Shown here in pieces: positions 39,533 to 53,476 of a stretch of DNA of 64,000 nucleotides. Each line of letters begins with the position of its first letter. The first letter of the stretch is position 1. Made by a program: the position numbers and the translations under genes. The notes beneath the pieces were generated by a model. It was not told the DNA's origin and searched no databases. It worked only from the letters and a program-made list of their open reading frames with translations. This DNA comes from Planctomycetota bacterium (GTDB lineage Bacteria > Planctomycetota > B15-G4 > SIAN01). The stretch covers positions 13,101 to 77,100 of the forward strand of contig SIAN01000004.1 in assembly GCA_009691715.1 (NCBI GenBank). The letters are read 5' to 3'.

Positions 39533-40573
39533 TCACTGCGATCGGCGCTCGAGCGGCGGCAGCGTCCCGCGCGGCGGCTCGGGCGCGAATCGCAGCTTTC
39601 GCTCCACGACGCACCAGACGAAGGTGGCGGCGCCGTAGGCGAAGTAGAGCTGGTGCAGGAACAGGCCGGCCAGCGCCGTCGCCAGGCCGGCCGCGCGCCA
39701 CAGCACGACGTAGAACGGCGCGCTGACCAGCGCCGCCACCAACAGGAGCCCGAGCGCCGCACCGAGAAACGGTCGATGCATCAGGCCGAGCGCCGCCGTC
39801 GCGAAGAACGCGCCTGCAATCAGCGCTTTCAGCCGCTCGGCGTTGCTGACGTTCAGCACGGCACCGGCGAGCTCTGGATGCTGCAGCAGCCGGCCCCACG
39901 GCAGCGCGCGGCGGAAGACGTCGGTGTGGAGCATGCTCCGAAGCGTCCAGCGCTTGAGGTGGGTGCCCTGCACCTCGGGCGCGAGCAGGATCTTTCCACC
40001 GGCGCGTCGCAGCCGGTAACCGAGCTCGATGTCCTCAATCGATGGGACGGTGTAGTAGTCGGCGTCGAAGCCCCCCGCCGACAAGAACGCGTCGCGTCGC
40101 ACCGCGCCGCAGCCGGCCCAGAAGGTCGACGCCTCGCCGGCGTGCGTCGTGTGGGTGTGGTGGTGCAGCAGGTTGCGGTAGCGCGAGACGACGCCGGGAG
40201 CGTTCGGCTGCTCGTCATAGGCGCCGAACAGGGCGACGATGTCGGCGCGCCGCGCGAAGTGGCGCGCGACCAGCTCCGGCACGTCGTCGTGCATCACGAC
40301 GTCGGAATCGACGAACAGCAGGATCGCGCCGCGCGCCGCGAGTGCACCCTGGTTGCGGCAGGCGCCGGGCCCCTTGCGCCCACCGGACGGGATGACGGTG
40401 AAGCCCGCGGCCTGGCACTGCCGTGGCCCATCATCGGTGCAGCCATCGTCGACGACGATCACTTCGGCGACACGGCCCGCGGCGAGCGCGCGCTGAAGCG
40501 GCGGCGCCACCCGCGTGAGGTAGCTCGCGGCGTTGTACATCGGCACGACGATGCTGATCGCGGCGCTGCTCAT
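39533..40573 (-). CDS. Family 2 glycosyltransferase
   Basis: It starts ISIVVPMYNAASYL and has the VVDDGCTDD DxD region. Its start overlaps the deacetylase stop (ATGA). Confidence 0.75.
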   Translation of the reverse strand: MSSAAISIVVPMYNAASYLTRVAPPLQRALAAGRVAEVIVVDDGCTDDGPRQCQAAGFTVIPSGGRKGPGACRNQGALAARGAILLFVDSDVVMHDDVPELVARHFARRADIVALFGAYDEQPNAPGVVSRYRNLLHHHTHTTHAGEASTFWAGCGAVRRDAFLSAGGFDADYYTVPSIEDIELGYRLRRAGGKILLAPEVQGTHLKRWTLRSMLHTDVFRRALPWGRLLQHPELAGAVLNVSNAERLKALIAGAFFATAALGLMHRPFLGAALGLLLVAALVSAPFYVVLWRAAGLATALAGLFLHQLYFAYGAATFVWCVVERKLRFAPEPPRGTLPPLERRSQ

Positions 40574-41322
40574 GCGCCGTACGCCGCGCCCTTGACGCGT
40601 CGCAGGAGACGCCGCCACGCGATCCATGCACGCGTGCGCGGCGCGAAGAGCGGTAGCCGGCGCGCCGGATCGCGCAGGTACCAGCTGTCGAGCCGAGGCC
40701 ATTCGTGGACGCGAGCGGCACGCCTGGCCGCAACCTCGGGCAGATAGTCGAGCAGCGTCGTGACCGCGCTCGACCAGTGCAGAGCGACCTCTGCGCGGCT
40801 CGCGGCGTCATGCCAGCCGTAGGGATAGGCGAAGTGGCTCACCCGCGAGCCAAACCGCTGCTCGAGCGCGGCCTTGCTGTCGACCAGTTCGCGGCGCGCG
40901 GCATCGGGGGCGAGCGCACGGCAGTCGACGTGGTTGGCGGTGTGGCCGCCGATCGTGCCACCGGCGGCGAGCAGTTCCTGCAGTTCCGTCTGGCCCATCA
41001 GCTCGAACCGCGGGATGGCCGCCGTCTGGCCAGGCCAGCGGTTGTCGCGGCCGATCCAGTCGGAGACGACATAGGCCGTGAACGGCAGTCCGCGCCGCGC
41101 GAGTCGCGGCAGCGCGTCGGCATGCACGGAGCGAAAGCCGTCGTCGAAGGTGAGCGCCACGCGCGGCGCGGCTCCCGTTGACGGCACCCGCAGCGCGTCG
41201 AGCGCGACGATCGCGACTCCCTCCGCCTGCAGGCCATCGAGCAGCCGCTCGAAGTCTTCCGGCGAGTAGGAGAGCACCGAGCCGCTGCGGTCGATGCCAT
41301 GGAAGGTGAGGAGCGCGTCCAT
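40570..41322 (-). CDS. Polysaccharide deacetylase (NodB-homology domain)
   Basis: It contains LTFDDGFRSV (the TFDDG motif) and a His-rich metal site. Its start overlaps the GT4 stop (ATGA). Confidence 0.75.
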   Translation of the reverse strand: MDALLTFHGIDRSGSVLSYSPEDFERLLDGLQAEGVAIVALDALRVPSTGAAPRVALTFDDGFRSVHADALPRLARRGLPFTAYVVSDWIGRDNRWPGQTAAIPRFELMGQTELQELLAAGGTIGGHTANHVDCRALAPDAARRELVDSKAALEQRFGSRVSHFAYPYGWHDAASRAEVALHWSSAVTTLLDYLPEVAARRAARVHEWPRLDSWYLRDPARRLPLFAPRTRAWIAWRRLLRRVKGAAYGA

Positions 41323-42527
41323 CAGCGCGCCTCCGTGGCGACCGCGCGCCGGAAGCAGGCGACCGCGTCGGCGGCGCCGCGCTCCCAGGTGAAACGGCGC
41401 GATCGGGCAAGCGCTTTCGCGGCGAGCAGCGCGCGCTGCTGCGGCCGACCCAGCACTTCCGACAGCGCCGCCTGCAGCGCCATCGCATCGAGCGCGGGCA
41501 CCAGCAGGCCGCCGTCGCCCACCACCTCCGGCAGCGAGCCGGCGTCGCTCGCCACCACCGGCGTCGCGCAGCTCATCGCCTCGAGCGCCGGCAAACCGAA
41601 GCCTTCGAGCAGCGACGGCAGGACCAGCGCGCACGCTCCTTGATAGAGCGGCACGAGATCGTCGTCGGCGACGAAGCCGGTCCAGTGGACGCGCGCGGCG
41701 AGCCGCGCATCGGCGGCGATCTGCTGGCGCAGCGGAGCGGCGCTGTCGAGGAAGCCGTCCGCCTTGGGATCGCCCACCAGCACGAGCGTTGCGTCGCCGC
41801 TTGCGCCATTGCTTGCGTTGGCGAGCAAGCGCGAGAACGCCGTGAGCAGCGTCGCAAGGTTCTTGTGTGGGCTGATGCCGCCGACGAACAGGAAGTAGGG
41901 TCGATCCTCCGGGATTCGCAGTCGTCGCAACGCCGCCGCGAGCGCCGCGTGATCGGTCGGCGGCCGGAAGCGCGCGTCGGCGCCCTCGCTCACCACGTCG
42001 ATCCGATCGGCGGCGATCCCGTAGACGCGGCCGACGTCACGCCTCGACGCCTCGCTCACCGTCATCACGCGCGTCGCCTGACGCGCCGCGAGCCACGATT
42101 TCGCCCGCCAGAACCACTCGCTCTTCCGATCGGGGAAGACCATCCTCGGGAAGGTCTCGGCGATCGCGTCGTGGAAGCAGACGACCGCGCGCGTGCCGGG
42201 CCAGAGCGGGAAGGCGCTGTAGACGGCCGGCAGGAACAGCAGGTCGGCCTGGCAACGACGAGCCGCGCGCGTGAACGCAAACAGCTCAGCGGGGCGACGC
42301 GCATCGCCGGCGACGGCAGCGTCGGTCACGCTGCGGCCGGGTTGCGCGTTCAAGCGCGGCAGCGCCAGGAGCGGTTCCGGCAGATCGCCCGGCGCGGCGT
42401 CACGGTCGACCAGAAGCACGAAGTCGAAGCCGTCGCTGCGGCGCGCCAGCGCGGCCAGCAGCTCGCGCGCGAAACGCCCGAAGCCGCGGCGGTTGAAGCA
42501 GCAGGAGGCGTCGACGGCGATGCGCAA
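41322..42527 (-). CDS. Family 4 (GT-B) glycosyltransferase
   Basis: The C-terminal EGFGLPALEAMSCATPVVASDAGSLPEVVGDGG is the canonical GT4 E-X7-E region. Confidence 0.8.
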   Translation of the reverse strand: MRIAVDASCCFNRRGFGRFARELLAALARRSDGFDFVLLVDRDAAPGDLPEPLLALPRLNAQPGRSVTDAAVAGDARRPAELFAFTRAARRCQADLLFLPAVYSAFPLWPGTRAVVCFHDAIAETFPRMVFPDRKSEWFWRAKSWLAARQATRVMTVSEASRRDVGRVYGIAADRIDVVSEGADARFRPPTDHAALAAALRRLRIPEDRPYFLFVGGISPHKNLATLLTAFSRLLANASNGASGDATLVLVGDPKADGFLDSAAPLRQQIAADARLAARVHWTGFVADDDLVPLYQGACALVLPSLLEGFGLPALEAMSCATPVVASDAGSLPEVVGDGGLLVPALDAMALQAALSEVLGRPQQRALLAAKALARSRRFTWERGAADAVACFRRAVATEAR

Positions 42528-42699
42528 CCGGAGCGACCTCAGAGTGCCTGACAGAATGGACGCGTGACGCCGAGGCCAAGCGAGGGCACCTGGGGCGAGG
42601 AGACCGAAGCAGGCGACTCTGAAGAGTCGCCGATGGAGGTCGACGAAGTCCTGGGTGACCGCAGCCAGCCAAACGTAGTGGACCTTCTGTCAGGCACTC

Positions 42700-44154
42700 T
42701 CAGTCCTCGACCACGTGGGTCGCGAAGACCGCACGATGCTTCGCCCACGCGGCGCGGTCGAACTCGGCGCCGGTGAGGCAATCGACTGCTGCCCATGCCA
42801 TCGCCAGCGCGTGGTGGGTGTTGTCGTGGGCGAAGAGTCCCTGCCGCCCGTAGGTGAGGAAGCGCGGCAGCGTGTCGCAGAAGCGATCGACCTGTTCGAG
42901 CGGCTGCTCGTAGCCGTTCAGGTAGATCGGATAGGCCTGCGGCAAACGCATCACCTTCACCGCAGTCGGCGGCGCCGGCAGCGGCAGGCCGGCGCGGGCG
43001 AGATCGGCCGCAACGACCGCACCGAGCTCCGCCTCGCTCATCTTCCAGAAGCGATCGCCAGCGTCGCACGGCAGCTCGGCGCAGAGCGTGGTCGCGCCCG
43101 CGGGTGCGCCGAGGTCGCCGTAGTTCTTCGGTTCCGACAGGCGCGTAATCGTGATCTCGGCTTCGGGGAAATAGTGGGCGTCGTACTCGGTGAACTGCGC
43201 CACTGGGAGGCGCAGGTAGACCAGCAGCATCGCGCGGTAGCTCACCTGCGCCGCTGCCGCGAACACCGGCGCGGGCGGCGGTTCCGTGAGCAGTTTCGGG
43301 ACGAGCGTGACCGGCAGCGTCGACCAGACGTGGTCGGCTTCAAGCACGGACTCGCGGCCGCCACGATCGATCGCGATCCGCCACGGCGCGTCTCCACGCG
43401 GCGCTTGCAGCGACTTCACCCGATGTTCGAGCAGCAGCTCGGCGCCTGAGGACTGCGCGGCGCGCGCCAAGGCGTCGGAAAGCTGTCCGTAACCGTGGCG
43501 CGGGTACCAGAACCGGCCGCTGCCGGGCTTTTTGAAGCCGGGAACCGCGTTCAAGACCTTGCGCACCAGCTTCAGCACGGTGCCGGCGGAGACGCGACGA
43601 CGCGCCTGGATGCCCGACAGCTGTTCCGGTCCGCGGCCCCAGATCTTGCGCGCGTACGGAAAGTAGAAGCGATCGCACATGGTCGGTCCGAGGTTCTGGC
43701 TCAGGACCGATTCAAACGTGTCCGGCGTGCCGGGCGCGGGACGCCGCAGTCGCTTGGTCGCGCCGTCGTAAGCGAGCGACACGCCGAAACTCGGCGGCAG
43801 TCGCGTCAGCAGATCGAGCGGCTTCAGCGGAAAATGGATGAAACGGCCGAGCAATCGGATGCGGCCGTGGCGCGGGCGGTCGAGCAGATCGGCGCCCAGC
43901 AGCTGCTTCAGATCGGCGAGGATCGACGGCTCGCAGGCGGGATGGAGCCGATGGCTGCCGAAGTCGAGCTTCTGGCCTTCCCACTCGAAGCTGCCGGCAT
44001 TGCCGCCGAACCACGGATTCTGTTCGACCAGCGTGACCGACGCCTTCTTCTGCAACGCGAGCTGCCACGCGCCACCGAGTCCGGCCGGGCCTCCGCCGAG
44101 CACGACCACGCGTGGGCGCCCCGCACTGCCAACGCGGTCATTCGTGACGCTCAT
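42700..44154 (-). CDS. FAD-dependent oxidoreductase (amine-oxidase/UDP-galactopyranose-mutase-like Rossmann fold)
   Basis: It has an N-terminal dinucleotide-binding motif VVVLGGGPAGLGGAWQLA followed by FGGNAGS. Its start overlaps the upstream membrane protein stop (ATGA). Confidence 0.65.
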   Translation of the reverse strand: MSVTNDRVGSAGRPRVVVLGGGPAGLGGAWQLALQKKASVTLVEQNPWFGGNAGSFEWEGQKLDFGSHRLHPACEPSILADLKQLLGADLLDRPRHGRIRLLGRFIHFPLKPLDLLTRLPPSFGVSLAYDGATKRLRRPAPGTPDTFESVLSQNLGPTMCDRFYFPYARKIWGRGPEQLSGIQARRRVSAGTVLKLVRKVLNAVPGFKKPGSGRFWYPRHGYGQLSDALARAAQSSGAELLLEHRVKSLQAPRGDAPWRIAIDRGGRESVLEADHVWSTLPVTLVPKLLTEPPPAPVFAAAAQVSYRAMLLVYLRLPVAQFTEYDAHYFPEAEITITRLSEPKNYGDLGAPAGATTLCAELPCDAGDRFWKMSEAELGAVVAADLARAGLPLPAPPTAVKVMRLPQAYPIYLNGYEQPLEQVDRFCDTLPRFLTYGRQGLFAHDNTHHALAMAWAAVDCLTGAEFDRAAWAKHRAVFATHVVED

Positions 44155-45176
44155 CCGTGGCGCACCTTCATCTCCGGGTTGATCTTTGGAGTCGCCAGCG
44201 GCGAACGGCGCCGGAGCACCAGCCACACCGCGCCGCAAAACAGGCTGCCGACGATCAGCACGCCTTGCCACAAGAACGACGCGGCCAATGCGCGCGCCTT
44301 CACCTCATCGAACGGCAGCGCGGTGGCGACGACCAGCGGCGCGAACAGCACCGCGAACACGCCATCGCGCACGCCGATGCCGTTGAAGCTCGCCGGCGCC
44401 AGCCCCGCCAGCTTGGCGAGCGACCAGGCGAATACCCACGCGGCCGCGCTCGCCTCGAGCCCGAGCGCGCGGCCGAGCACCGCATTCAGCGCGATCAACG
44501 AGCCCTGCATCGCCACTCCGCCCGCGAGCGAGAAGAACAGCACCTTCGGTCGGCGGCCCTGTCGACGCAGCGCGATCAGCAGTTGCGCGATCCGCCGGCG
44601 CCAACGCGGCGGCCAGCGTTTGAGCGGCCGTCGCACCAGCACCAGCAGCGCGACGACGCCAGCGGCAGCAGAGAGCGCGACGACCAGCACCAGCAGCGTC
44701 CCCGCGGTTCCTTGCCGATCGAGGCCGACGAACGCACCCGCGGCCACCACCAGCACGCCAAGCGCCATCAGATCGAGCAGACGGTCGGCCACGCCGCCGA
44801 GCACGGCACCTTCCATCCGGCCGCTCTTCCTCCCCGCGAGCAGCGCGCGCAGCACGTCGCCGCCGACGATGCTCGGCAGGAACAGGTTCGAGAACAGGCC
44901 GGCGCAGTAGCACTCGACCGACTGCCGCAGCGTGAGGCGCGCGCCGGCTTGGCCAATCACCATCCGCCATTTGAAGACGCCAAACAGGTGGCAGGCGACG
45001 AAGCCAAGGACCACCAGGAAAAACGTCGACGGCGGGACACTCGCGAGCGCGGCGCGCAGTTTCTGCCATGGCACCATGCGCACCAGCAGCGCCAACACCA
45101 GCGCGCTCGCGGCGAGCCGGAAGGCGAGCTTGCGCCGACTCGATGCGGCGACCGGGCCTGGCGGCGCGCGGTTCAT
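44151..45176 (-). CDS. Multi-TM membrane protein, lysylphosphatidylglycerol-synthase-TM-region (MprF flippase-like, UPF0104) family
   Basis: It has about 8 TM helices with basic loops. It resembles the flippase-like TM domain found with GtrB-type enzymes. Confidence 0.55.
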   Translation of the reverse strand: MNRAPPGPVAASSRRKLAFRLAASALVLALLVRMVPWQKLRAALASVPPSTFFLVVLGFVACHLFGVFKWRMVIGQAGARLTLRQSVECYCAGLFSNLFLPSIVGGDVLRALLAGRKSGRMEGAVLGGVADRLLDLMALGVLVVAAGAFVGLDRQGTAGTLLVLVVALSAAAGVVALLVLVRRPLKRWPPRWRRRIAQLLIALRRQGRRPKVLFFSLAGGVAMQGSLIALNAVLGRALGLEASAAAWVFAWSLAKLAGLAPASFNGIGVRDGVFAVLFAPLVVATALPFDEVKARALAASFLWQGVLIVGSLFCGAVWLVLRRRSPLATPKINPEMKVRHG

Positions 45177-45180
45177 GCGA

Positions 45181-46074
45181 TCAGCGCTTCATCGCCATCC
45201 GCGCGTTCTGGTCGGCGAGGAGGCCCACGGACCAGACGACGAGCGCACCGAGCAGCGCCAACACGGCACTCTCCGACAAGTTGTCGAGGAAGCAGTCGTA
45301 GGCGAACTTCGCGGTGCCGGCGGCGAACAGCAGCGCACCCACCGGCAGGAAGAACTTGAGCGGGTGGAACAGCACCACCGTCCGCAGGATCAGCAGCAGG
45401 AAGTCCCACGCGTGGCGCGGCCGGATCTTGCTGGCACCGTGCCGCTTGCCGTAGTCGATCGCCACGAACTTGATCGGGTGCCCGTTGCAGGCGCACGACA
45501 GCGTGATCGTGGTGGTGAAGGAGAAACCTTGCGGCAGCAGGTGCTCGTAACGCTTGACCAGCGACTTGCGCATGAGCCGCATGCCGGAGTTTAGATCGGG
45601 GATGCGCAGTCCCGAGAGGTAGCTCGCCAATCGGGTGAGCACCCACTTGGCCGGCCGGCGCACCAGCGGGATGTTCACGTTGGCACCGATGCGGGCGCCG
45701 ACGACCATCTCGTGCTGTGCCGCCTGTTCGAGGAGTTGCGGGATCGCGGCCGACGGGTACGTGCCGTCCGCGTCGGTGATCAGGATCCAACCATGCTTCG
45801 CGGCGTTGATGCCGGTCTTCAAGGCCGCGCCGTAACCCTCGTTGCGGACCTTGCGCAGCACGCGCGCGCCGGCAGCGGATGCCTCTTCGGCGGTCGCGTC
45901 GCGCGAACCGTCGTCGACGACGATCAGCTCCCATTCCCAGCCGCTCTTCGCCATCGCCTCGGCGACGGCGCGAACCTGTGCCGCGACGTGCGGCCCCTCG
46001 TTGAACGCGGGGATCACGACGCTGACGGCGCGCTCTTTCGCGCCCAATGCCGGTTCGCCGACCTCCTCGATCAA
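45181..46074 (-). CDS. GT2 polyprenyl-phosphate sugar transferase (GtrB/ArnC/DPM1-like)
   Basis: It contains VVIPAFNEG...LIVVDDGSRD...ITDADGTYP and two C-terminal TM helices. A TTG start after a G-rich SD is proposed. Alternative starts exist up to 46233. Confidence 0.7.
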   Translation of the reverse strand: MIEEVGEPALGAKERAVSVVIPAFNEGPHVAAQVRAVAEAMAKSGWEWELIVVDDGSRDATAEEASAAGARVLRKVRNEGYGAALKTGINAAKHGWILITDADGTYPSAAIPQLLEQAAQHEMVVGARIGANVNIPLVRRPAKWVLTRLASYLSGLRIPDLNSGMRLMRKSLVKRYEHLLPQGFSFTTTITLSCACNGHPIKFVAIDYGKRHGASKIRPRHAWDFLLLILRTVVLFHPLKFFLPVGALLFAAGTAKFAYDCFLDNLSESAVLALLGALVVWSVGLLADQNARMAMKR

Positions 46075-46239
46075 GAGCCGCCCCCCGCCTTGCCGCCGTG
46101 GACCGCCGTCTGCACTGCCCTGCCACTGCCTGCCGCCTCTTCGGTGGCGCCGCAGTCGGAGCTTGACCGCGGATTGTAGGGCGCCGGAGCGGAAGGCCGT
46201 TCCGCATCGCGCGACGCGGCGTCGGCTGCTCACTCCAGT

Positions 46240-47763
46240 TCAGTGACCCGCGCGCGCCACGAAAACCGTCCCGCCCCCCATCGATCCGGGCAGCTCGGCG
46301 ACGACCTCGAAGTCGCGCTGCACCACCTCCCAGACATCAGGTCGCGCGGCCGCGAGCTGTTCGGGCAACGTGTAGACCAGCCAAGTCGTTGCGGCAGCGG
46401 CGCGGATCGCGGCGAGATCGGCCGCCGTGTCGGCCTTCGTCCAACTCGGCGCGTAGTAGTCGGGCAACGCCCGCTTCGCCGGCCCGACCGCAACCCGGGC
46501 GTCGTTCGGCTTCGCGCGCGCCTCGACCAAGTCGCGCGCGCCGACGAAATCCTGCTTCGGGTGGGCATAGACCCGTTCGAGCGAGAGCGAGGATGCCGCC
46601 GCCACCGCGAGCACGACGGCGATCCCCCACAGCTCGGTCCGGCGCACCTTGCAGCCCGGCAGGTTGCACGACAGCCAACCGCCGCTGATGCGCGCGCCGC
46701 GCACGACGACGATCGCCACGAAGCCGGCCTCGAAGAAGAAAAAGCGCGGATAGAGGTGGCGATGGAGCGTGAGCAGGACCGCAAGCGCGAGCGGCGGCGC
46801 CAGCAGGTGCATCAGCACGAAGGCGCGCCGGCCGTTGCGCCAGAGCGAAACCGTGCCGATCAGCGCCAGCACGCCGGCGGCAGCGATGCCGATCAGCGCG
46901 AACGGCGATACGCCGAGGCTTTCGATCATTTGGCGCACGGCCCACAAGGGGCTCGTCCACGGCTCGACCTTGGCAACGGTGACGCTCGCGCCGCTGGCGC
47001 GCGCGGTGAACGCAGCGACCAGATCGCCGGCGAGTGGCGCGTAGAGCAGCAGCGCCAGGGCCGCCGCGCCGCCCATCGCGGCGAGGGCCGTCGCGGTCGC
47101 ACGCGGCAGCGGTGCTGGGGCGCAGTCGACCAAGGGTCGCACCGGTCCCGTCGCCGTCGTCTGCGCCGGCCAGAACCGGAGCCCGGCCCACACAAGCGCG
47201 TGGCCGACGAATGCGAACACCGCCGTCAGGTGGGTGTACGCGGCAAGAGCGGCGAACAGCGCGTAACGCCACGCACCACGGCGCGTCGGCGCCGACAGGA
47301 GGCGCAGGAACTCGCTGGTCGCCAGCACCGTGAACAGCAACATTCCGGTGTAGCCGCGCGCGTTCTGCGAGAACCAGACATGGTGCGCCGAGACCGCGAG
47401 CAGGAGCGCTGCCAGCAGTCCGGTCGTCTCGTCGATCAGTTGCCGCCCGAGTCGGGCGACGGCGAACAACGACGCCACGCCGAAGAGCAGTGCCGGCAGG
47501 CGGACGATCGCCTCGCTCTCGCCGAACGCGACCACTGCCAGACGCGCCAGCACTGAATAGAGCGGGTGCTGGTTCTCGCTGCCGTAGCTAATGACGATCG
47601 TCGCAAGCGGCTGGCGCACGATTGCGACCAGAGTGTCGACCTCATCGATCCAGAACGACGACGACAGGCCGACGAGACGCAGCCCGAGGCCGAGCACGAG
47701 CAGCGCCGCCAAGAGCAGCATCCCGCGCCGACCGAAGCCGGCCGTCGGCGCTGCTTCGGTCAC
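46240..47763 (-). CDS. GT-C family glycosyltransferase (ArnT/PMT, family 39/83-like)
   Basis: It has about 12 TM helices and an N-terminal DE motif region (FWIDEVD), typical of lipid-linked sugar transferases. A GTG start overlaps the stop of the small ORF upstream (GTGA). Confidence 0.7.
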   Translation of the reverse strand: MTEAAPTAGFGRRGMLLLAALLVLGLGLRLVGLSSSFWIDEVDTLVAIVRQPLATIVISYGSENQHPLYSVLARLAVVAFGESEAIVRLPALLFGVASLFAVARLGRQLIDETTGLLAALLLAVSAHHVWFSQNARGYTGMLLFTVLATSEFLRLLSAPTRRGAWRYALFAALAAYTHLTAVFAFVGHALVWAGLRFWPAQTTATGPVRPLVDCAPAPLPRATATALAAMGGAAALALLLYAPLAGDLVAAFTARASGASVTVAKVEPWTSPLWAVRQMIESLGVSPFALIGIAAAGVLALIGTVSLWRNGRRAFVLMHLLAPPLALAVLLTLHRHLYPRFFFFEAGFVAIVVVRGARISGGWLSCNLPGCKVRRTELWGIAVVLAVAAASSLSLERVYAHPKQDFVGARDLVEARAKPNDARVAVGPAKRALPDYYAPSWTKADTAADLAAIRAAAATTWLVYTLPEQLAAARPDVWEVVQRDFEVVAELPGSMGGGTVFVARAGH

Positions 47764-47963
47764 TTGTCGGCGATGTCTTCCGAGCCGTACGGCAGACGCG
47801 TCTGGATGTCGCCGACGTCGAGGTCAAGTTCACCGTCGCCATCACGACGGACCGCCGCGGTCTCCCCTGGCTTGCCCATCGGCAAGGTCGCGTCGAACTG
47901 CGATCCCGGCACGGGCTTGCCCGGCTCGATCTCGCCGGCAGCCTTCTGATCCTTCGCTTCCAT
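47760..47963 (-). CDS. Small acidic protein (67 aa), candidate modified peptide/substrate
   Basis: An AGGGAGAG SD precedes the start, and the ORF is translationally coupled to the GT-C gene. The product is hydrophilic and Asp/Glu/Gly-rich (…DGDGELDLDVGDIQTRLPYGSEDIADK). Confidence 0.4.
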   Translation of the reverse strand: MEAKDQKAAGEIEPGKPVPGSQFDATLPMGKPGETAAVRRDGDGELDLDVGDIQTRLPYGSEDIADK

Positions 47964-48023: not shown

Positions 48024-48239
48024 TCAACGCTCCTGGCCCGTGAACCCTTCCTTCAGCCGATCCGTCGGCGCGATCTCCTCGATCGCGAAGTCGAATCCGT
48101 CCGCTGCCACCGCCGCCGGCAACCCGGTCGCGGCGGCGGTCGGCGCGGAAGGCGACGGCGAACCTGCTGGCGCAACGGTCGAGTCGCGCGACGGTCGAAC
48201 CGCGTCGCCATCCGCCATCGGTCGGTTGTCCATCGTCAT
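48024..48239 (-). CDS. Small Ala/Pro/Ser-rich acidic protein (71 aa), candidate modified peptide/substrate
   Basis: A GGAG SD precedes the start, which is 25 nt after the rSAM stop. The C-terminus DGFDFAIEEIAPTDRLKEGFTGQER loosely resembles the C-terminus of the next small ORF. Confidence 0.35.
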   Translation of the reverse strand: MTMDNRPMADGDAVRPSRDSTVAPAGSPSPSAPTAAATGLPAAVAADGFDFAIEEIAPTDRLKEGFTGQER

Positions 48240-48264: not shown

Positions 48265-50769
48265 TCAAACCGCCGACGGCTTGCAGTAGAGGTGCATCGT
48301 TTCGGCGACTCGCACCGGATCGGCGGCAGCCGGAGCGACGGTGAGATCGCCCGTCCCGTTCGCCGCCGATGCCGAAGACGCCAACGACGACGCCAACGAC
48401 GACGCCGAAGGCGACGCCGCAGTTCCTCGCGGCCGCTCGCTGACGCCGAACGGTCGCGCCGTGACCAGCCCGCGCACCAACAACTCGCCGAGGAACTTCT
48501 CGACCTTGGGCTGCTGCGCTGCAGTGAAGCCGCCGACGATCTCCGCCACCGTCTTGCGCCCATCGCACGCCTCGAGCAGGCGCGCCGCATCCTTGCCGAC
48601 GTGCAGCAAATCGCTTGAACGCGCGCGGTAGACGGCGAAGTTGCGCGCCGGTGGCGCGGCCGGTACTTGGCTCGACATCTCCTCGAACAGCTTTTCCTTG
48701 AAGTTGCCCGACTGGTAGCGCGGCTTGAGGACGGCGCATTCCGCCTCGTTCAGCTTCTCCGCGATCGTGCGCAGGTCGTAGGGCATCTCGACCAGCCGGT
48801 TGCCATCGGGCAGCCGCAGGCGAGCGGTGGCGAGCTCGGCGGGTGCCGTCTCGGCGACCGTGACCTCGCTCTTGCCGTGCAGGAACGACAGATCCCCGTA
48901 ACGGCAGAGGTAGAGGAAGTAGTGGCTCTTCAGCTCGAAGAGCAGCAGGTTGTCGCCGCGGAAGAGCGGGAACTCCTCGCGCAGCACCTTCATGAAATCG
49001 AAGAAGAGCTCGCGTGCTTCGCGCCGCGACATGCCGCCGTCGACGATCTGCGTCGCGGAGCCGCTGCTGCCGTCCTGGCAGGAGGCGCCGTCGGGATGGC
49101 CGTGGTCGTCGCCGTGGGTCTTGCCGTACTGCTTCACCACCGGCAGCGTCGTGCCGGCGCGCGCCGGAATCCAGTCGTAGTAGACCTGCAGATCCTTCTC
49201 GGGATCGATCAGGATGCGCTCGACGCCGTAGGTCTGCGGGTGCTCGAAGACCTTGCTCAGGTGGTCGACATAGAAGATCCGCAGCGACACCTCGTCGACG
49301 CAGTCCTTGTGCGAACGCAGCCAGGCGAGCGTCTCGAGCGCTTCCTCGCGCGTCTCGGTCGGGAAGCCGATCATCGTGTAGAGCGTGTTGCTGATGCCGA
49401 CCTTGGCGAGCCGGCGCAGGATCCCCTCCGCCTCTTCGATCGCGGTGCCCTTCTCCATCAGGTCGAGCAGGCGTTGCGAGCCACTCTCGAAGCCGAACGC
49501 GATGCGCCGGCAACCGGACGCGTAGAGGTCGCGGCAGAGCTCGTCGGTGAAGAGGTTCTTCTCCAGGCGCGCGTCGGTCCACCACTTGATGGCCAGGTCG
49601 CGCTTCTTCAGTTCGATCGGGAGCTGCTTGAAGACCGGTGGCGGCATGTCCTCGACGACGAAATAGATGACGTCGCTGTTCCAGAGCTTCGTCACCTTCG
49701 CGATGTCGTCCATCACCTTGTCGAGTCGACGCTGGCGGAAGCCGGGGCCGATCACCTTGTACAAGGTGCAGAAGGCGCATTTCTCCCAGTAGCAACCGCG
49801 CGTGATCGCAAGCGGCAGCGCCAGCTTCGGCGAGTAGTAGCGCTCCATCGGCATGCCGTCGAACTCGGGCGTCGGCAGCGAGTCGATCGAGAGCGGGCTC
49901 GCCGGCGCATTGACGACGACCTTGTCGCCGTCCTTCCAGATCGCGTTGCCGACCCCGTCAGCGGGATTCTCCTTGCCGGCCGCGACGTTCTTCGCCAGCT
50001 CGAGCAGCGGCCCTTCGCCTTCGAGCACGATCGCACTGTCGATGGCGGCGAAGACCTTTCCGCTGCGGGTCGCTTTCTCCCCGATGTAAGCGAGCAGTCC
50101 GCCGCCGACGGTCACATGCACGTTCGGCAGCGCCTGCTTAATCATGCGGGCAAGTGCCAAGCCCGGAATCACCTGGCTGGTGTAGGTGAGCGAGATCCCG
50201 ACCAGGTCGGGCTTCATCGCGATGATCTCGGGCAACGCCTTGTCGCGGAAGTATTCGCAGAAGAAGTTGGCCTGCTCGTCGAAGACGGCGGCGAGAACCT
50301 CCGCCTCCTTCTCGATCGACCACGACAGCGTGTAGTTGTGCGGCGTGAGCGAACTCGGGTAGTGCTCGGCCGAGATCAGGCGGAACGCGCGGTCGAGAAG
50401 CTTCACTGCGCGCAGGTAGCGGTCGTAGTCGTAGAACGCCTCGTCGTTGCGCAGCGTGAAGAGCGCCTCGTCGATCCCCTCCACCACCGAGTCGGCCGAA
50501 GCGTGCGCCTCGGCCAGCACGCGGAAGCGGTCCATCTGCGGCAGCGGCAGCGGCCGATCGACCGGGTGCGCGGCGAACGCGGTCGCGACCCGATCGCGCG
50601 CCAGCGCGAGACGCTCCTTGGCCAGGAACCACTCGTGCGCTTCGAGGTTGAGATCGCGCTGGTGGCTGTCGGCGAAACCGTTCGCGCGCAGGAAGGCGAC
50701 CAGTGACGGCAGGGCGAGGTACGGTTGCGTCGGGTGAGCCTGCGGCGGGAAGAGCAGAAGAGTGCGCAA
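48265..50769 (-). CDS. B12-binding-domain radical SAM enzyme with long C-terminal extension (possible PqqD/RRE-like segment)
   Basis: It has an N-terminal B12-binding-like domain (LLLFPPQ...). The rSAM cluster LAITRGCYWEKCAFC is a Cx4Cx2C spacing variant. It is 834 aa long, and the C-terminus contains LLEACDGRKTVAEIVGGF...FLGELLVRGLV. A TTG start follows a GGAGGA SD. Confidence 0.75.
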   Translation of the reverse strand: MRTLLLFPPQAHPTQPYLALPSLVAFLRANGFADSHQRDLNLEAHEWFLAKERLALARDRVATAFAAHPVDRPLPLPQMDRFRVLAEAHASADSVVEGIDEALFTLRNDEAFYDYDRYLRAVKLLDRAFRLISAEHYPSSLTPHNYTLSWSIEKEAEVLAAVFDEQANFFCEYFRDKALPEIIAMKPDLVGISLTYTSQVIPGLALARMIKQALPNVHVTVGGGLLAYIGEKATRSGKVFAAIDSAIVLEGEGPLLELAKNVAAGKENPADGVGNAIWKDGDKVVVNAPASPLSIDSLPTPEFDGMPMERYYSPKLALPLAITRGCYWEKCAFCTLYKVIGPGFRQRRLDKVMDDIAKVTKLWNSDVIYFVVEDMPPPVFKQLPIELKKRDLAIKWWTDARLEKNLFTDELCRDLYASGCRRIAFGFESGSQRLLDLMEKGTAIEEAEGILRRLAKVGISNTLYTMIGFPTETREEALETLAWLRSHKDCVDEVSLRIFYVDHLSKVFEHPQTYGVERILIDPEKDLQVYYDWIPARAGTTLPVVKQYGKTHGDDHGHPDGASCQDGSSGSATQIVDGGMSRREARELFFDFMKVLREEFPLFRGDNLLLFELKSHYFLYLCRYGDLSFLHGKSEVTVAETAPAELATARLRLPDGNRLVEMPYDLRTIAEKLNEAECAVLKPRYQSGNFKEKLFEEMSSQVPAAPPARNFAVYRARSSDLLHVGKDAARLLEACDGRKTVAEIVGGFTAAQQPKVEKFLGELLVRGLVTARPFGVSERPRGTAASPSASSLASSLASSASAANGTGDLTVAPAAADPVRVAETMHLYCKPSAV

Positions 50770-50782
50770 GGATGTTCCTCCG

Positions 50783-51133
50783 TCAGTTTGGCGAGGTGAA
50801 GCTATCGGCCGGCAGCGCCAGAATCACGCTGGCGATCGCACCGCGCGCCTCATGGAGACGGAAACCGCGTGCCGCCAGTTCCCGCTTGGCTTCGCCGCTG
50901 AAGGCGAGCGCGATGACCCAACCGCAGTCGGCGACGAGGTTTGCCAGGGCCAAATAGTCCCGGAACACCCGGCCGGGCGATGCCGGCAACGCGCGCCGAT
51001 CGACGAAGCGGACTTCGTTCCCGTGCCGCTCCCAGACGACGCAGTCGGCGGCGCGATGGAAGCGCTCGTTGACGCCGATGCCGTCGCGCGAGATGACGGC
51101 GATCCGTCGCGAGGGCCGTGCGTCGTGCGACAC
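50783..51133 (-). CDS. NifX/NifB-type (dinitrogenase FeMo-cofactor-binding domain-like) small protein
   Basis: The 116-aa sequence RIAVISRDGIGVNERFHRAADCVVWE...VRFVDRR matches the Nitro_FeMo-Co domain pattern. The GTG start is 2 nt after the upstream stop. Confidence 0.45.
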   Translation of the reverse strand: MSHDARPSRRIAVISRDGIGVNERFHRAADCVVWERHGNEVRFVDRRALPASPGRVFRDYLALANLVADCGWVIALAFSGEAKRELAARGFRLHEARGAIASVILALPADSFTSPN

Positions 51134-51135
51134 CG

Positions 51136-53157
51136 TCAGTAGCCCGCGGCCGGGTCGACGACGGACAGGAGCTGCTCGCCCGCGGCGAAGCGCCGCAAGT
51201 TCTCGCGGTAGAGCAGGAACTGCCGCTCTGCCGCGCTCGCGCTGTCGGCCGCGACGTGCGGGGTGATGACGACCTGCGGGAAGCGCCAGAGCGGGTGGTC
51301 GGGCGGCAGCGGCTCGGGATCGGTCACGTCGAGCGCGGCACCAGCGAGCCGCCCCGACTCGAGCGCGGCGATGAGCGCGGCGGTGTCGACGCACTTCCCG
51401 CGCGCGACGTTGCAGAGCCGAGCGCCCGGCTTGAGCGCGGCGAAGAAGCGCTCGTCGCAGAGCCGCGTCGTCGCGGGGGTGAGCGGCACGCAGATGAAGA
51501 CGATGTCGGCGAGCGGCGCCAGCTCGAGCAGCCGATCGGGCGGCTCGACGCGCTCGACTTCGGAGGAGACGCCGCGACCGGAGGGGGTGGTCGCGATCAC
51601 TCGCGCGCCGAAGGCCGCGGCGCGCCGCGCGATCTCGCGGCCGATGCCGCCGAGGCCAGCGATCAGGACCGTCTTGCCGCGGAGCTCGTCCATGCCCGCG
51701 GGCGCGACGTCGCGCCATTCGTGCGCGCCGCGCTGGTTCTCGCCAAAGGCCGGCAGCCCGCGCATCAGCGCCAGCATCATCCCGAGCGCGTGATCGGCGA
51801 TCTCCGGGCCGTAAAGCCGCTGCGCGTTCGTGAGCGCGACGCGACGCTGCGCGATCGCCGGAATCCCGACGTAGCGCTCGACTCCCGCGGAGCCGACCTG
51901 CGCCCAGCGCAGCATCGTTCCGCGCGCCAGCAGCTCGGCACTGCAGGCACCGATCAGCCCGTCAGCATCGACGACGTGCGCCAGCGCGGCGGCCGGGTCG
52001 ACTGCGGCGACCAGCTCGAGTTCGGGGACGGCAAGGCGCAGCCGCGCGACCAACGCATCATCGCTGTCGACGACCAAGACCTTGCGCGGCGCCTTCCAGC
52101 CGGGCGCTTCGCGCGACGGCGATGGGCCCGGCACGAGGCCGAGCTCTTCAGTGAGCAGCAGTGGCGGTCGGCGCCCGGTGAACTCGCCGAAGACGTGAGC
52201 GACGTTCTCTGCGCGCGAACTCGCCGCGACACCGGTCCATTCCTGGTACCACGGCAGGTCGAGCCCCGACAGGATCCCGCCTTCGTCCTGTCCCGTCGCG
52301 ATGCCGACGGCGACCGCGTCGCGCAGATCGATCAACCAGCGTCGCTGGCGGAGGAGCAGCTCGGGCCCACCCTCCGCGCCGTGCCCCGGACAGACGATCC
52401 GAGGTCGCAGCGCGATCAGCCGGTCGAGCACTGCAATCCAGTTCTCGCTGTCGCTGTCGCCGAGGAAGTTGTGCGCCCCGTTGACACAGAGGTCGCCGGT
52501 GAAGAGCACGCGTTCTTCCGGCAGCCACGCGACGGCGTCGCCGCGAGTGTGGCCGCGGCCGTAGTGCAGGAACTCGACGCGGCGGGCGCCGCTACCGACG
52601 ACCAGTCGCTCGTCGAATCGGAGCGATGCGCCGACGAAGCGGGTGCCGGCGAGCTGCGTGCGCTCGGCCGCGTCGGTCGACTGCTCGATGCGGCGGAACG
52701 CGGCGAGGCCGCGCGTTTCGAGCAATTCGGCGCACCGCGAATGGGCGGCGACCAGTGCGCCGCCGTCGGCGTGGACGGCGTTCCCGAAACTGTGGTCCCA
52801 GTGGTCGTGGGTGTCGAAGACCAGCCGCACCGGCAACGCGCTCCGTTGCGCGATCTCCTCGCGCAGCGCGCGCGCGACCACCGGCATGCTCGCCTCGATC
52901 GCGACGATCTGGTCGTCCTGAAGGACGAAGCCGCTGTTCGCGCCCTCGAACACCGGCGCGATCGACGCCTCGGCGAAGAAGACGCCGGGCGCAACTTCGC
53001 GGACGGTCGGCCGCGAAGTTGCGGCAAGTGGCGCAGTTGGCGCAGCTACCGCGGCAGCGGCAGCCGGCGCGTGCGCAGCCGTCGGATCTGGCAGCGGCCA
53101 GCAGAACGGTGCCGCAGCCAACACCGCGACGATCGCGATCCTCGTGCTCGAAACCAT
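51136..53157 (-). CDS. Fusion protein: secreted metallo-beta-lactamase-fold hydrolase + D-isomer-specific 2-hydroxyacid dehydrogenase (NAD-binding)
   Basis: The N-terminus has a signal peptide (MVSSTRIAIVAVLAAAPFCWPLP) and MBL motifs (VFDTHDHWDHSFGN, CPGHG). The C-terminus has GKTVLIAGLGGIGREIARRAAAFGARVI and ITPHVAADS. The + strand ORF 51118..53226 is Arg-rich antisense junk. Confidence 0.75.
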   Translation of the reverse strand: MVSSTRIAIVAVLAAAPFCWPLPDPTAAHAPAAAAAVAAPTAPLAATSRPTVREVAPGVFFAEASIAPVFEGANSGFVLQDDQIVAIEASMPVVARALREEIAQRSALPVRLVFDTHDHWDHSFGNAVHADGGALVAAHSRCAELLETRGLAAFRRIEQSTDAAERTQLAGTRFVGASLRFDERLVVGSGARRVEFLHYGRGHTRGDAVAWLPEERVLFTGDLCVNGAHNFLGDSDSENWIAVLDRLIALRPRIVCPGHGAEGGPELLLRQRRWLIDLRDAVAVGIATGQDEGGILSGLDLPWYQEWTGVAASSRAENVAHVFGEFTGRRPPLLLTEELGLVPGPSPSREAPGWKAPRKVLVVDSDDALVARLRLAVPELELVAAVDPAAALAHVVDADGLIGACSAELLARGTMLRWAQVGSAGVERYVGIPAIAQRRVALTNAQRLYGPEIADHALGMMLALMRGLPAFGENQRGAHEWRDVAPAGMDELRGKTVLIAGLGGIGREIARRAAAFGARVIATTPSGRGVSSEVERVEPPDRLLELAPLADIVFICVPLTPATTRLCDERFFAALKPGARLCNVARGKCVDTAALIAALESGRLAGAALDVTDPEPLPPDHPLWRFPQVVITPHVAADSASAAERQFLLYRENLRRFAAGEQLLSVVDPAAGY

Positions 53158-53323: not shown

Positions 53324-53400
<77 letters not shown>

Positions 53401-53476
53401 CGTTCCGATCGGGAAGGGCTAAGAAGCTAGGAGCGCTCCGCTCAGGAATCAAGACCGCGGCCAAGCAGACTGGGCT

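Follow-up and report, generated by a model that had tools for sequence, protein, structure and literature searches.

The DNA analysed here, referred to as the window, is a stretch of 64,000 nt from a Planctomycetota bacterium (contig SIAN01000004.1, positions 13,101 to 77,100). Its reverse strand carries, at positions 51136..53157 including the stop codon, a gene in which a metallo-beta-lactamase (MBL)-fold hydrolase is joined to a D-2-hydroxyacid dehydrogenase; this gene, called the fusion below, is followed in the same direction by a small NifX-like gene, a gene for a B12-binding radical S-adenosylmethionine (rSAM) protein and two genes for small peptides. The open reading frame (ORF) of the fusion ran from ATG 53157 to the TGA at 51136-51138 and encoded 673 aa. 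A preliminary description of the locus, made from the sequence, had given a single polypeptide of 674 aa; the fusion itself stood, and the figure of 674 applies to the codons when the stop is counted. The start was placed at ATG 53157, preceded by GGAGGAGG as the ribosome-binding site (RBS), and TTG 53277 was dropped in its favor on the strength of the RBS, the N-termini of the homologues and the length of the database protein P0001, which had the same length as the fusion and was 100% identical to it. The gene assignment was based on the ORF, the RBS, Pfam matches, P0001, the homologues and an AlphaFold2 (AF2) model.

The MBL domain occupied residues 51-345 (52123..53007, reverse strand) and included a C-terminal helical extension; it was assigned as SoxH-related from PF00753, TIGR04559, the invariant ligands and a domain model. 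Lactamase_B (PF00753) matched at 53.5 bits against a cutoff of 22.7 (4e-14), and the motifs HDHWDH (residues 117-122), GHTRGD, TGDLC and PGHG were all present. H117, H119, D121, H122, H203, D222 and H259 were invariant in 94/94 fusion homologues, as was an extra cysteine in the site, Cys224 (94/94). The HxHxDH MBL domain of the preliminary description was thus borne out, with all metal ligands in place. The SoxH-related profile TIGR04559 aligned end-to-end with the domain at 97.3 bits and did not reach its cutoff of 280; the subclass B1 profile NF033088 gave 64.9 bits against a cutoff of 200, which was not reached either, the site being made up of HxHxDH, the Asp of the TGD motif and the extra Cys224. 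When modeled separately, the domain had a predicted local distance difference test (pLDDT) score of 94.4, and its nearest structures were 8d2z, chlorothalonil dehalogenase, B1/B2 beta-lactamases and alkylsulfatases, all of them exported hydrolases. No gene context of the pyrroloquinoline quinone (PQQ)-dehydrogenase or SoxYZ type was seen in the window or in the related loci examined.

The second domain, at residues 358-673 (51139..52086, reverse strand), was a complete D-isomer-specific 2-hydroxyacid dehydrogenase, as judged by PF02826, matches in the PDB, Foldseek and motifs. 2-Hacid_dh_C (PF02826) matched over the full profile with 182.9 bits (4.6e-54), and the split catalytic domain PF00389, spanning residues 417-707 of the 713-aa ORF, scored below its threshold (19.9 vs 24.6 bits). 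Sequence matches in the PDB were to PGDH, D2-HDH and GRHPR at about 1e-41; in Foldseek, the dehydrogenase half superposed on the Haloferax D2-HDH 5mh5 with a TM score of 0.85, and GRHPR and PGDH matched too. The GxGxxG motif, here GLGGIG (residues 501-506), and the catalytic residues R586, E615 and H634 were all present in the window fusion, and across the 94 homologues the triad was conserved in 76 (R586), 74 (E615) and 73 (H634). The dehydrogenase with its GxGxxG motif was therefore complete, as first described, in motif, triad and fold.

The NAD-specifying Asp that ends strand beta-B was an Asp in 66/94 homologues, and the window fusion has Thr524 at this point and then Arg528. At this site (fusion residues 520-528; 51586-51600, reverse strand), the window clade as a whole replaces the Asp by Thr, Ser, Asn or Glu, with Arg or Lys four residues on. 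Because the Asp is replaced by Thr524, followed by Arg528, the sequence suggests that NADP(H) is a likelier cofactor than NAD in the window clade. None of the NCBIfam equivalog cutoffs was reached by the fusion, the best score for the dehydrogenase being 179 vs 400 bits with NF041369. Each of the two domains comes from a well-known superfamily, and neither reaches a curated equivalog cutoff. In the AF2 model of the fusion, which was built on an alignment of 94 sequences, the mean pLDDT was 91.7 and the predicted TM score was 0.88, and both domains were intact. The model consisted of a helix at residues 3-18, a disordered, Ala/Pro-rich segment at 19-50, the MBL domain at 51-345 and the dehydrogenase at 358-673.

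The N-terminus of the fusion resembled a signal peptide from residue 1 to about residue 30 (53068..53157, reverse strand), with MVSSTR, IAIVAVLAAAPFCW and PLPDPTAAHA following the n-h-c pattern and the helix at residues 3-18 of the AF2 model lying within it. The putative cleavage site AHA is followed by a Pro, and the position of cleavage is uncertain. Signal peptides were called on the 94 homologues with a simple heuristic, by which the window fusion and 80/94 homologues were signal-peptide-like; most of the others failed because the gene call was truncated at a conserved MKFNEV or because the basic residue was missing. Nearly all homologues started with one to three K/R residues; a hydrophobic stretch came next and then an AxA-like site. 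A signal-peptide-like N-terminus, as proposed for this protein, was seen by this heuristic in most of its relatives. The hydrophobic run had a median of 13 aa, which is the length of a signal peptide and not that of a membrane anchor, and the net charge around it was +1.4 before and -0.3 after the run, which favors an N-in/C-out orientation with the catalytic domains outside. Export is strongly predicted, and these features speak for a Sec signal that is cleaved off. Export by the twin-arginine translocation (Tat) system was not indicated, because a twin-arginine motif (RR plus hydrophobic residues) was found in just 7/94 homologues; the window fusion has a single Arg in this region (MVSSTR). 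A lipoprotein signal was also considered and rejected: there was no lipobox (APFC), and the Cys was not conserved among close relatives.

About 95 full-length homologues with both domains, at 34-74% identity, came up in a protein search, and the named sources were almost all metagenome-assembled genomes of Planctomycetota. Because this many full-length homologues exist, the architecture is found in relatives and a mis-assembly of the fusion is excluded. In databases the homologues were named only as "MBL fold metallo-hydrolase", as "NAD(P)-dependent oxidoreductase" or by a two-part COG name. The family showed domain fission and reciprocal domain decay, and the signal was kept in every variant with an inspected N-terminus. 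P0099 and P0104 consisted of a signal peptide and the dehydrogenase alone; P0075 and P0095 had a signal peptide, a degenerate MBL domain and an intact dehydrogenase; P0096, P0097, P0101 and P0102 had a signal peptide, an intact MBL domain and a degenerate dehydrogenase. Many MBL-only relatives, predicted to be exported, were also found. About 80% of the family kept both the GxGxxG motif and the R/E/H triad.

The stop codon of the fusion was followed by CG and then by GTG 51133 of the NifX-like ORF. Since GTG 51133 was the only start codon ahead of the conserved RIAVISRDG, the spacing of 2 nt reported for this junction is correct. Nothing resembling a terminator was seen between fusion and NifX-rSAM unit, and because of this and the 2-nt gap, the fusion is probably co-transcribed with this unit in the window genome. 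The order of fusion, NifX-like gene, rSAM and two small ORFs was common to the window and to loci L081-L086, L092-L094 and L099.

Co-occurrence of the fusion with the NifX-rSAM unit was tested in both directions, from the fusion loci and from the rSAM loci. On the fusion side, 80 loci from GTDB species representatives (19 with a full-length fusion, the rest mostly MBL-only) and the loci of P0017 and P0066 were screened with hidden Markov models (HMMs). Among close homologues, P0003 (73% identity), P0005 (68%) and P0009 (64%), the fusion, NifX-like gene, rSAM, two small ORFs, PMT_2, GT2, LPG_synthase_TM and FAD amine oxidase were arranged as in the window, and the entire region was syntenic, from a sigma-70 gene through CT398 and SelB onward. 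In P0011 (56%), the fusion was separated from the NifX-like gene by an opposite-strand SUI1 gene and a gene for an outer membrane protein (OMP); NifX-like gene, rSAM, small ORFs and PMT_2 still formed a contiguous run. The module was not found near the fusion in P0017 (47%) and P0066 (43%). By HMM, none of the 82 fusion or MBL-only loci, of which 21 were distant full-length fusions, had a NifX-like gene, and none had an orthologue of the window rSAM; the single hit, in L011, was a distant rSAM-like ORF that lay on the opposite strand. All-vs-all clustering of the neighbors in 18 fusion loci gave no recurrent neighbor beyond generic response-regulator domains and genes common to close relatives.

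On the rSAM side, an unbiased metagenome scan provided 80 rSAM loci. The fusion was present in 4/80, all with an rSAM identity of at least 73%, and absent from 76/80. The NifX-like gene was found in 4/63 of the unbiased rSAM loci with at least 500 nt upstream, and the same 4 had the fusion. Four loci with close rSAM orthologues (L095-L098, 71-74% identity) were without NifX-like gene and fusion; in L096, which was inspected by eye, the rSAM and peptide genes were kept. P0137 (60%) lacked the fusion and glycosyltransferase genes and had a NifX-like gene overlapping the rSAM start, followed by two small ORFs. P0150 (53%) had the rSAM with two small ORFs and P0161 (42%) the rSAM with one, both without the NifX-like gene and the fusion. 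The fusion thus adjoined the NifX-rSAM unit only in the narrow clade of the window (fusion identity at least 64%, rSAM identity at least 73%), and the co-occurrence with B12-rSAM genes proposed as a check on the locus failed.

Directly upstream of more distant rSAM genes, other genes were seen in the abutting position: an ORF with a PqqD-like end, possibly a tandem rSAM paralogue, in 21 loci (L117-L150), and an FG-GAP/ASPIC-type protein in 12 loci (L101-L149). A stand-alone 2-Hacid_dh gene after a shorter, distant rSAM (32-33% identity; L165 993-3807, and L159) was considered as an independent link and judged a coincidence; in L165, the locus of the two that was inspected, the rSAM had no RiPP recognition element (RRE), the dehydrogenase was cytoplasmic and the organism was low-GC.

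The position of the fusion beside the rSAM module is, in our judgment, probably a matter of lineage-specific synteny and not of membership in a pathway. An accessory chemical role of the fusion in the rSAM pathway is unsupported, because co-occurrence fails and the predicted compartments do not match: 21 distant fusion loci lacked the module, only 4/80 rSAM loci had the fusion, and other genes were inserted between the two in P0011.

The rSAM gene (48265..50769, reverse strand) encodes a B12-binding rSAM protein of 834 aa, identified by PF02310 and PF04055, with a C-terminal PqqD/RRE-like segment. It starts at TTG, with GGAGGA ahead, 13 nt past the NifX-like ORF. The best NCBIfam match was TIGR03975, a C-methyltransferase rSAM of peptides synthesized on ribosomes and modified after translation (RiPPs), below its cutoff; PqqD scored 20.3 bits on the C-terminal segment, and PF05402 was precomputed on homologues. 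At residues 326-334 the protein reads C326-YWEK-C331-AF-C334, that is, Cx4Cx2C, and the three Cys were invariant in 25 homologues; the canonical cluster-binding motif of rSAM enzymes is CX3CX2C. Two small ORFs, conserved downstream of the rSAM, encode candidate substrates: PepA (71 aa; 48024..48239, reverse strand), which ends in ...EEIxPTxxLKEGFTGQER, and PepB (67 aa; 47760..47963, reverse strand), which ends in ...LDLDxGxIQTRLPYGSEDIADK. The small ORFs were kept in L081, L083, L085, L089, L091 and L096, with variable N-terminal halves and strongly conserved C-termini. Neither PepA nor PepB had an export signal, no transporter was found in the cluster, and no signal-like hydrophobic N-terminus was found on the rSAM or the NifX-like protein. 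The rSAM family comprised more than 300 clusters. Across the loci compared, the core conserved unit is the B12-rSAM with the two small peptide genes, and together with the RRE-like tail it resembles a module for a RiPP or a peptide-derived cofactor, conserved and widely distributed among Planctomycetota.

The gene between the fusion and the rSAM (50783..51133, reverse strand) encodes a 116-aa protein of the NifX/NafY/NifB-C type (PF02579), with a GTG start and without a signal peptide. The assignment came from Pfam and from an orthologue profile: PF02579 (Nitro_FeMo-Co) matched the ORF itself marginally (27.3 vs 26.3 bits) and matched 5/5 orthologues, at best with 4e-09, and a profile of the five orthologues had 1p90 (NafY core) and 1rdu (TM1290) as its top PDB matches. 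A free-standing NifX/NifB-type domain next to a B12-rSAM, as first noted for this locus, was thereby substantiated. Orthologues lay directly upstream of the rSAM in L081-L086, L089, L092-L094, L099 and L100; the two genes were separated by a 13-nt gap with an RBS in the window and overlapped by 4 nt in L089, and at every locus where the NifX-like gene was present it abutted or overlapped the rSAM. Genes of the nif set (nifB/E/N/H/D/K) were absent from those annotated in the 28-64 kb part of the window and from related loci. On this conserved arrangement, the NifX-like gene belongs with the rSAM, to which it is an accessory, optional and tightly coupled where it occurs, and its product would be cytoplasmic. 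NifB carries a NifX-like domain together with a radical SAM domain, and because of the analogy with this domain of NifB, the protein probably serves the rSAM as a carrier of an Fe-S cluster or cofactor, or as a chaperone.

Outside these genes, a tRNA-Pro(CGG) gene (53325..53402, reverse strand) lay directly upstream of the fusion and was syntenic in L081, L083 and L085. The distance from the tRNA to the fusion was 168 nt in the window; in these three loci 1.9-5.3 kb of unrelated genes were inserted (L081 4606-10000, L083 8003-10000 and L085 5517-10000), including HisKA, a sigma-54 response regulator, a DUF3413-sulfatase and hypothetical genes. The interval between tRNA and fusion appears to be a hot spot for variable insertions. 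Downstream of the peptide ORFs, positions 39533-47763 (reverse strand) held a run of genes of the envelope-glycosylation type, annotated except for 40703-41321: PMT_2 (a GT-C glycosyltransferase), a GT2 resembling polyprenyl-phosphate hexose transferases, a flippase-like LPG_synthase_TM, an FAD amine-oxidase-family protein (PRK07208-like), a GT4 and a second GT2. A polysaccharide deacetylase came after this run in relatives.

We read the fusion as an autonomous, Sec-exported, periplasmic two-domain enzyme of a Planctomycetota-centered family that stands outside the rSAM pathway, with the NifX-like protein as an accessory of the rSAM, and we give this reading a probability of about 0.6. In the mechanism we propose, the SoxH-like, di-metal MBL domain would cleave a bond of the ester, amide or sulfate-ester type and so release, or work beside, a 2-hydroxy or 2-oxo acid, whose two forms the dehydrogenase domain would interconvert using NAD(P)(H), with NADP(H) likelier in the window clade. 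A coupling of glyoxalase II to D-lactate dehydrogenase was considered for the same pair of domains, as GloB, an MBL-type enzyme, yields D-lactate and D-lactate dehydrogenase belongs to the 2-Hacid_dh family; it was set aside as an unsupported analogy, the MBL domain being SoxH/B1-like, not GloB-like, and the protein being predicted to be exported.

Several points weigh against this reading. In the window and at least eight related loci, the fusion lay immediately upstream of the NifX-rSAM unit, with junctions ranging from a 1-nt overlap to a gap of at most 45 nt, and a functional link between fusion and rSAM may exist in this clade. About 20% of the fusion family had a degenerate dehydrogenase site, which suggests that some lineages can do without the redox step. 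We know of no route by which a Sec-exported protein could acquire NAD(P), and for this reason the dehydrogenase domain of the fusion may not work as proposed. That Sec-exported D-2-hydroxyacid dehydrogenases, fused or free-standing, work with NAD(P) in the planctomycetal periplasm is put forward as a tentative idea, with the odds leaning against it. If true, it would mean either that nicotinamide cofactor is supplied beyond the cytoplasmic membrane in an unrecognized way or that a tightly bound cofactor is loaded after export, and in the latter case the bound cofactor would serve a redox-neutral reaction coupled to the hydrolase.

The lack of any known loading route would also suit a protein whose dehydrogenase half is a dimerization or ligand-binding scaffold in the periplasm, with the MBL hydrolase as the sole catalytic activity. 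Such a role is consistent with the retention of the MBL ligands in all homologues as against the dehydrogenase triad in 73-76 of 94, with the degenerate or deleted dehydrogenase site of some members and with the many MBL-only exported relatives. We nevertheless consider it improbable: the window fusion and most of the family keep the GxGxxG motif and the triad, the family usually keeps the NAD-specifying Asp, and the exported dehydrogenase-only proteins (P0099 and P0104), together with those in which the MBL domain is degenerate (P0075 and P0095), argue that the dehydrogenase is functional alone.

A clade-specific tailoring step in the periplasm, in which the exported fusion acts on the mature peptide or on an envelope glycoconjugate together with PMT_2, GT2 and the flippase-like protein, was judged still less likely. 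GT-C enzymes work on the periplasmic face; the string of rSAM, peptides, PMT_2, GT2, LPG_synthase_TM, FAD oxidase and GT4 was kept in the same clade as the fusion, and envelope-modifying genes of the DUF3413-sulfatase type are neighbors in L081 and L083. Synteny of the region at large, from sigma-70 to SelB and beyond, explains this co-linearity equally well. Neither PepA nor PepB carries an export signal, the cluster contains no transporter, and P0137 has the NifX-like gene, rSAM and peptides without glycosyltransferases or the fusion. Least probable of all, and very unlikely in our estimate, is the model of the preliminary description, a single operon in which the fusion acts by hydrolysis and 2-hydroxyacid oxidoreduction on a B12-rSAM substrate or pathway intermediate and the NifX-like protein is the cofactor carrier: the gene order shared by the window with L081-L086, L092-L094 and L099 and the 2-nt junction without a terminator-like site speak for it, whereas a fusion predicted to be exported and an rSAM and NifX-like protein without signals would fall into different compartments, the 21 distant full-length fusions lack the module, the module occurs without the fusion in 76/80 loci, including those of close rSAM orthologues at 71-74% identity, and an opposite-strand gene splits the fusion from the NifX-like gene in P0011.

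For annotation, the reading of the fusion as an autonomous enzyme divides the apparent operon into an exported bifunctional enzyme that stands by itself, a NifX-like accessory that travels with the rSAM, and a widely distributed, RiPP-like core of rSAM and two peptides; of these, the rSAM and two-peptide core is a more promising target for discovery than the fusion. The locus also illustrates that tight spacing is an unsafe guide to function where common descent accounts for the synteny of the region around it. The dehydrogenase, predicted to be exported and with its NAD(P)-binding and catalytic residues in place, is a genuine oddity.

When compared with known systems, the NifX-like protein shares with the NifX/NafY/NifB-C group its PF02579 match, the NafY core as top PDB match and, as in NifB, the tie of the domain to a radical SAM protein; it differs in being free-standing, in its marginal Pfam score and in the lack of nitrogenase genes among those annotated. 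It is paired with a class-B (B12) rSAM that has an RRE-like tail and is not of the NifB type, and the NifX-like gene is confined to a subclade of that rSAM family. Nothing specific on planctomycete B12-rSAM RiPPs, or on 8D2Z, was found in the literature.

With respect to the hydrolase, SoxH-like enzymes are described as non-cytoplasmic and of unknown function (PMC12997753). The MBL domain of the fusion resembles SoxH and the "quinoprotein relay system zinc metallohydrolases" (TIGR04558/TIGR04559) as a putative non-cytoplasmic MBL-fold di-zinc hydrolase with HxHxDH that aligns over the whole profile; it differs in its score (97 vs 280 bits), in having no SoxYZ, PQQ-dehydrogenase or sox neighbors and in its attached dehydrogenase. 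The best sequence match to the domain was 8d2z, an MBL-superfamily protein of Burkholderia cenocepacia (5e-22), and 8d2z and the chlorothalonil dehalogenase Chd (6uxu) were the best structural matches (TM 0.73-0.78), with the C-terminal helical extension in common. Both share only 17-23% identity with the fusion and have no dehydrogenase domain, and 8d2z is uncharacterized. A full-length sequence search and Foldseek gave no two-domain precedent for MBL plus dehydrogenase in the PDB, returning single-domain dehydrogenases only, and nothing was found in the literature and curated families on an MBL + 2-Hacid_dh architecture or on an exported 2-Hacid_dh enzyme.

The dehydrogenase half has the two-lobe fold, GxGxxG motif and Arg-Glu-His triad of the D-2-hydroxyacid dehydrogenases (5mh5, GRHPR, PGDH and phenylpyruvate reductase) and departs from them in its predicted Sec-type signal, its fused MBL domain and its scores below all equivalog cutoffs. 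To our knowledge, all characterized D-2-hydroxyacid dehydrogenases are cytoplasmic. The nearest precedent for nicotinamide chemistry in the periplasm is the glucose-fructose oxidoreductase (GFOR) of Zymomonas mobilis, a member of the Gfo/Idh/MocA family with tightly bound NADP that is exported via Tat, folded and with its cofactor; the window fusion belongs to another family, in which the twin-arginine motif is not conserved. If its export holds, the fusion would represent an uncommon nicotinamide-dependent dehydrogenase that operates outside the cytoplasm without the Tat system, and would bear on the chemistry of the large planctomycetal periplasm.

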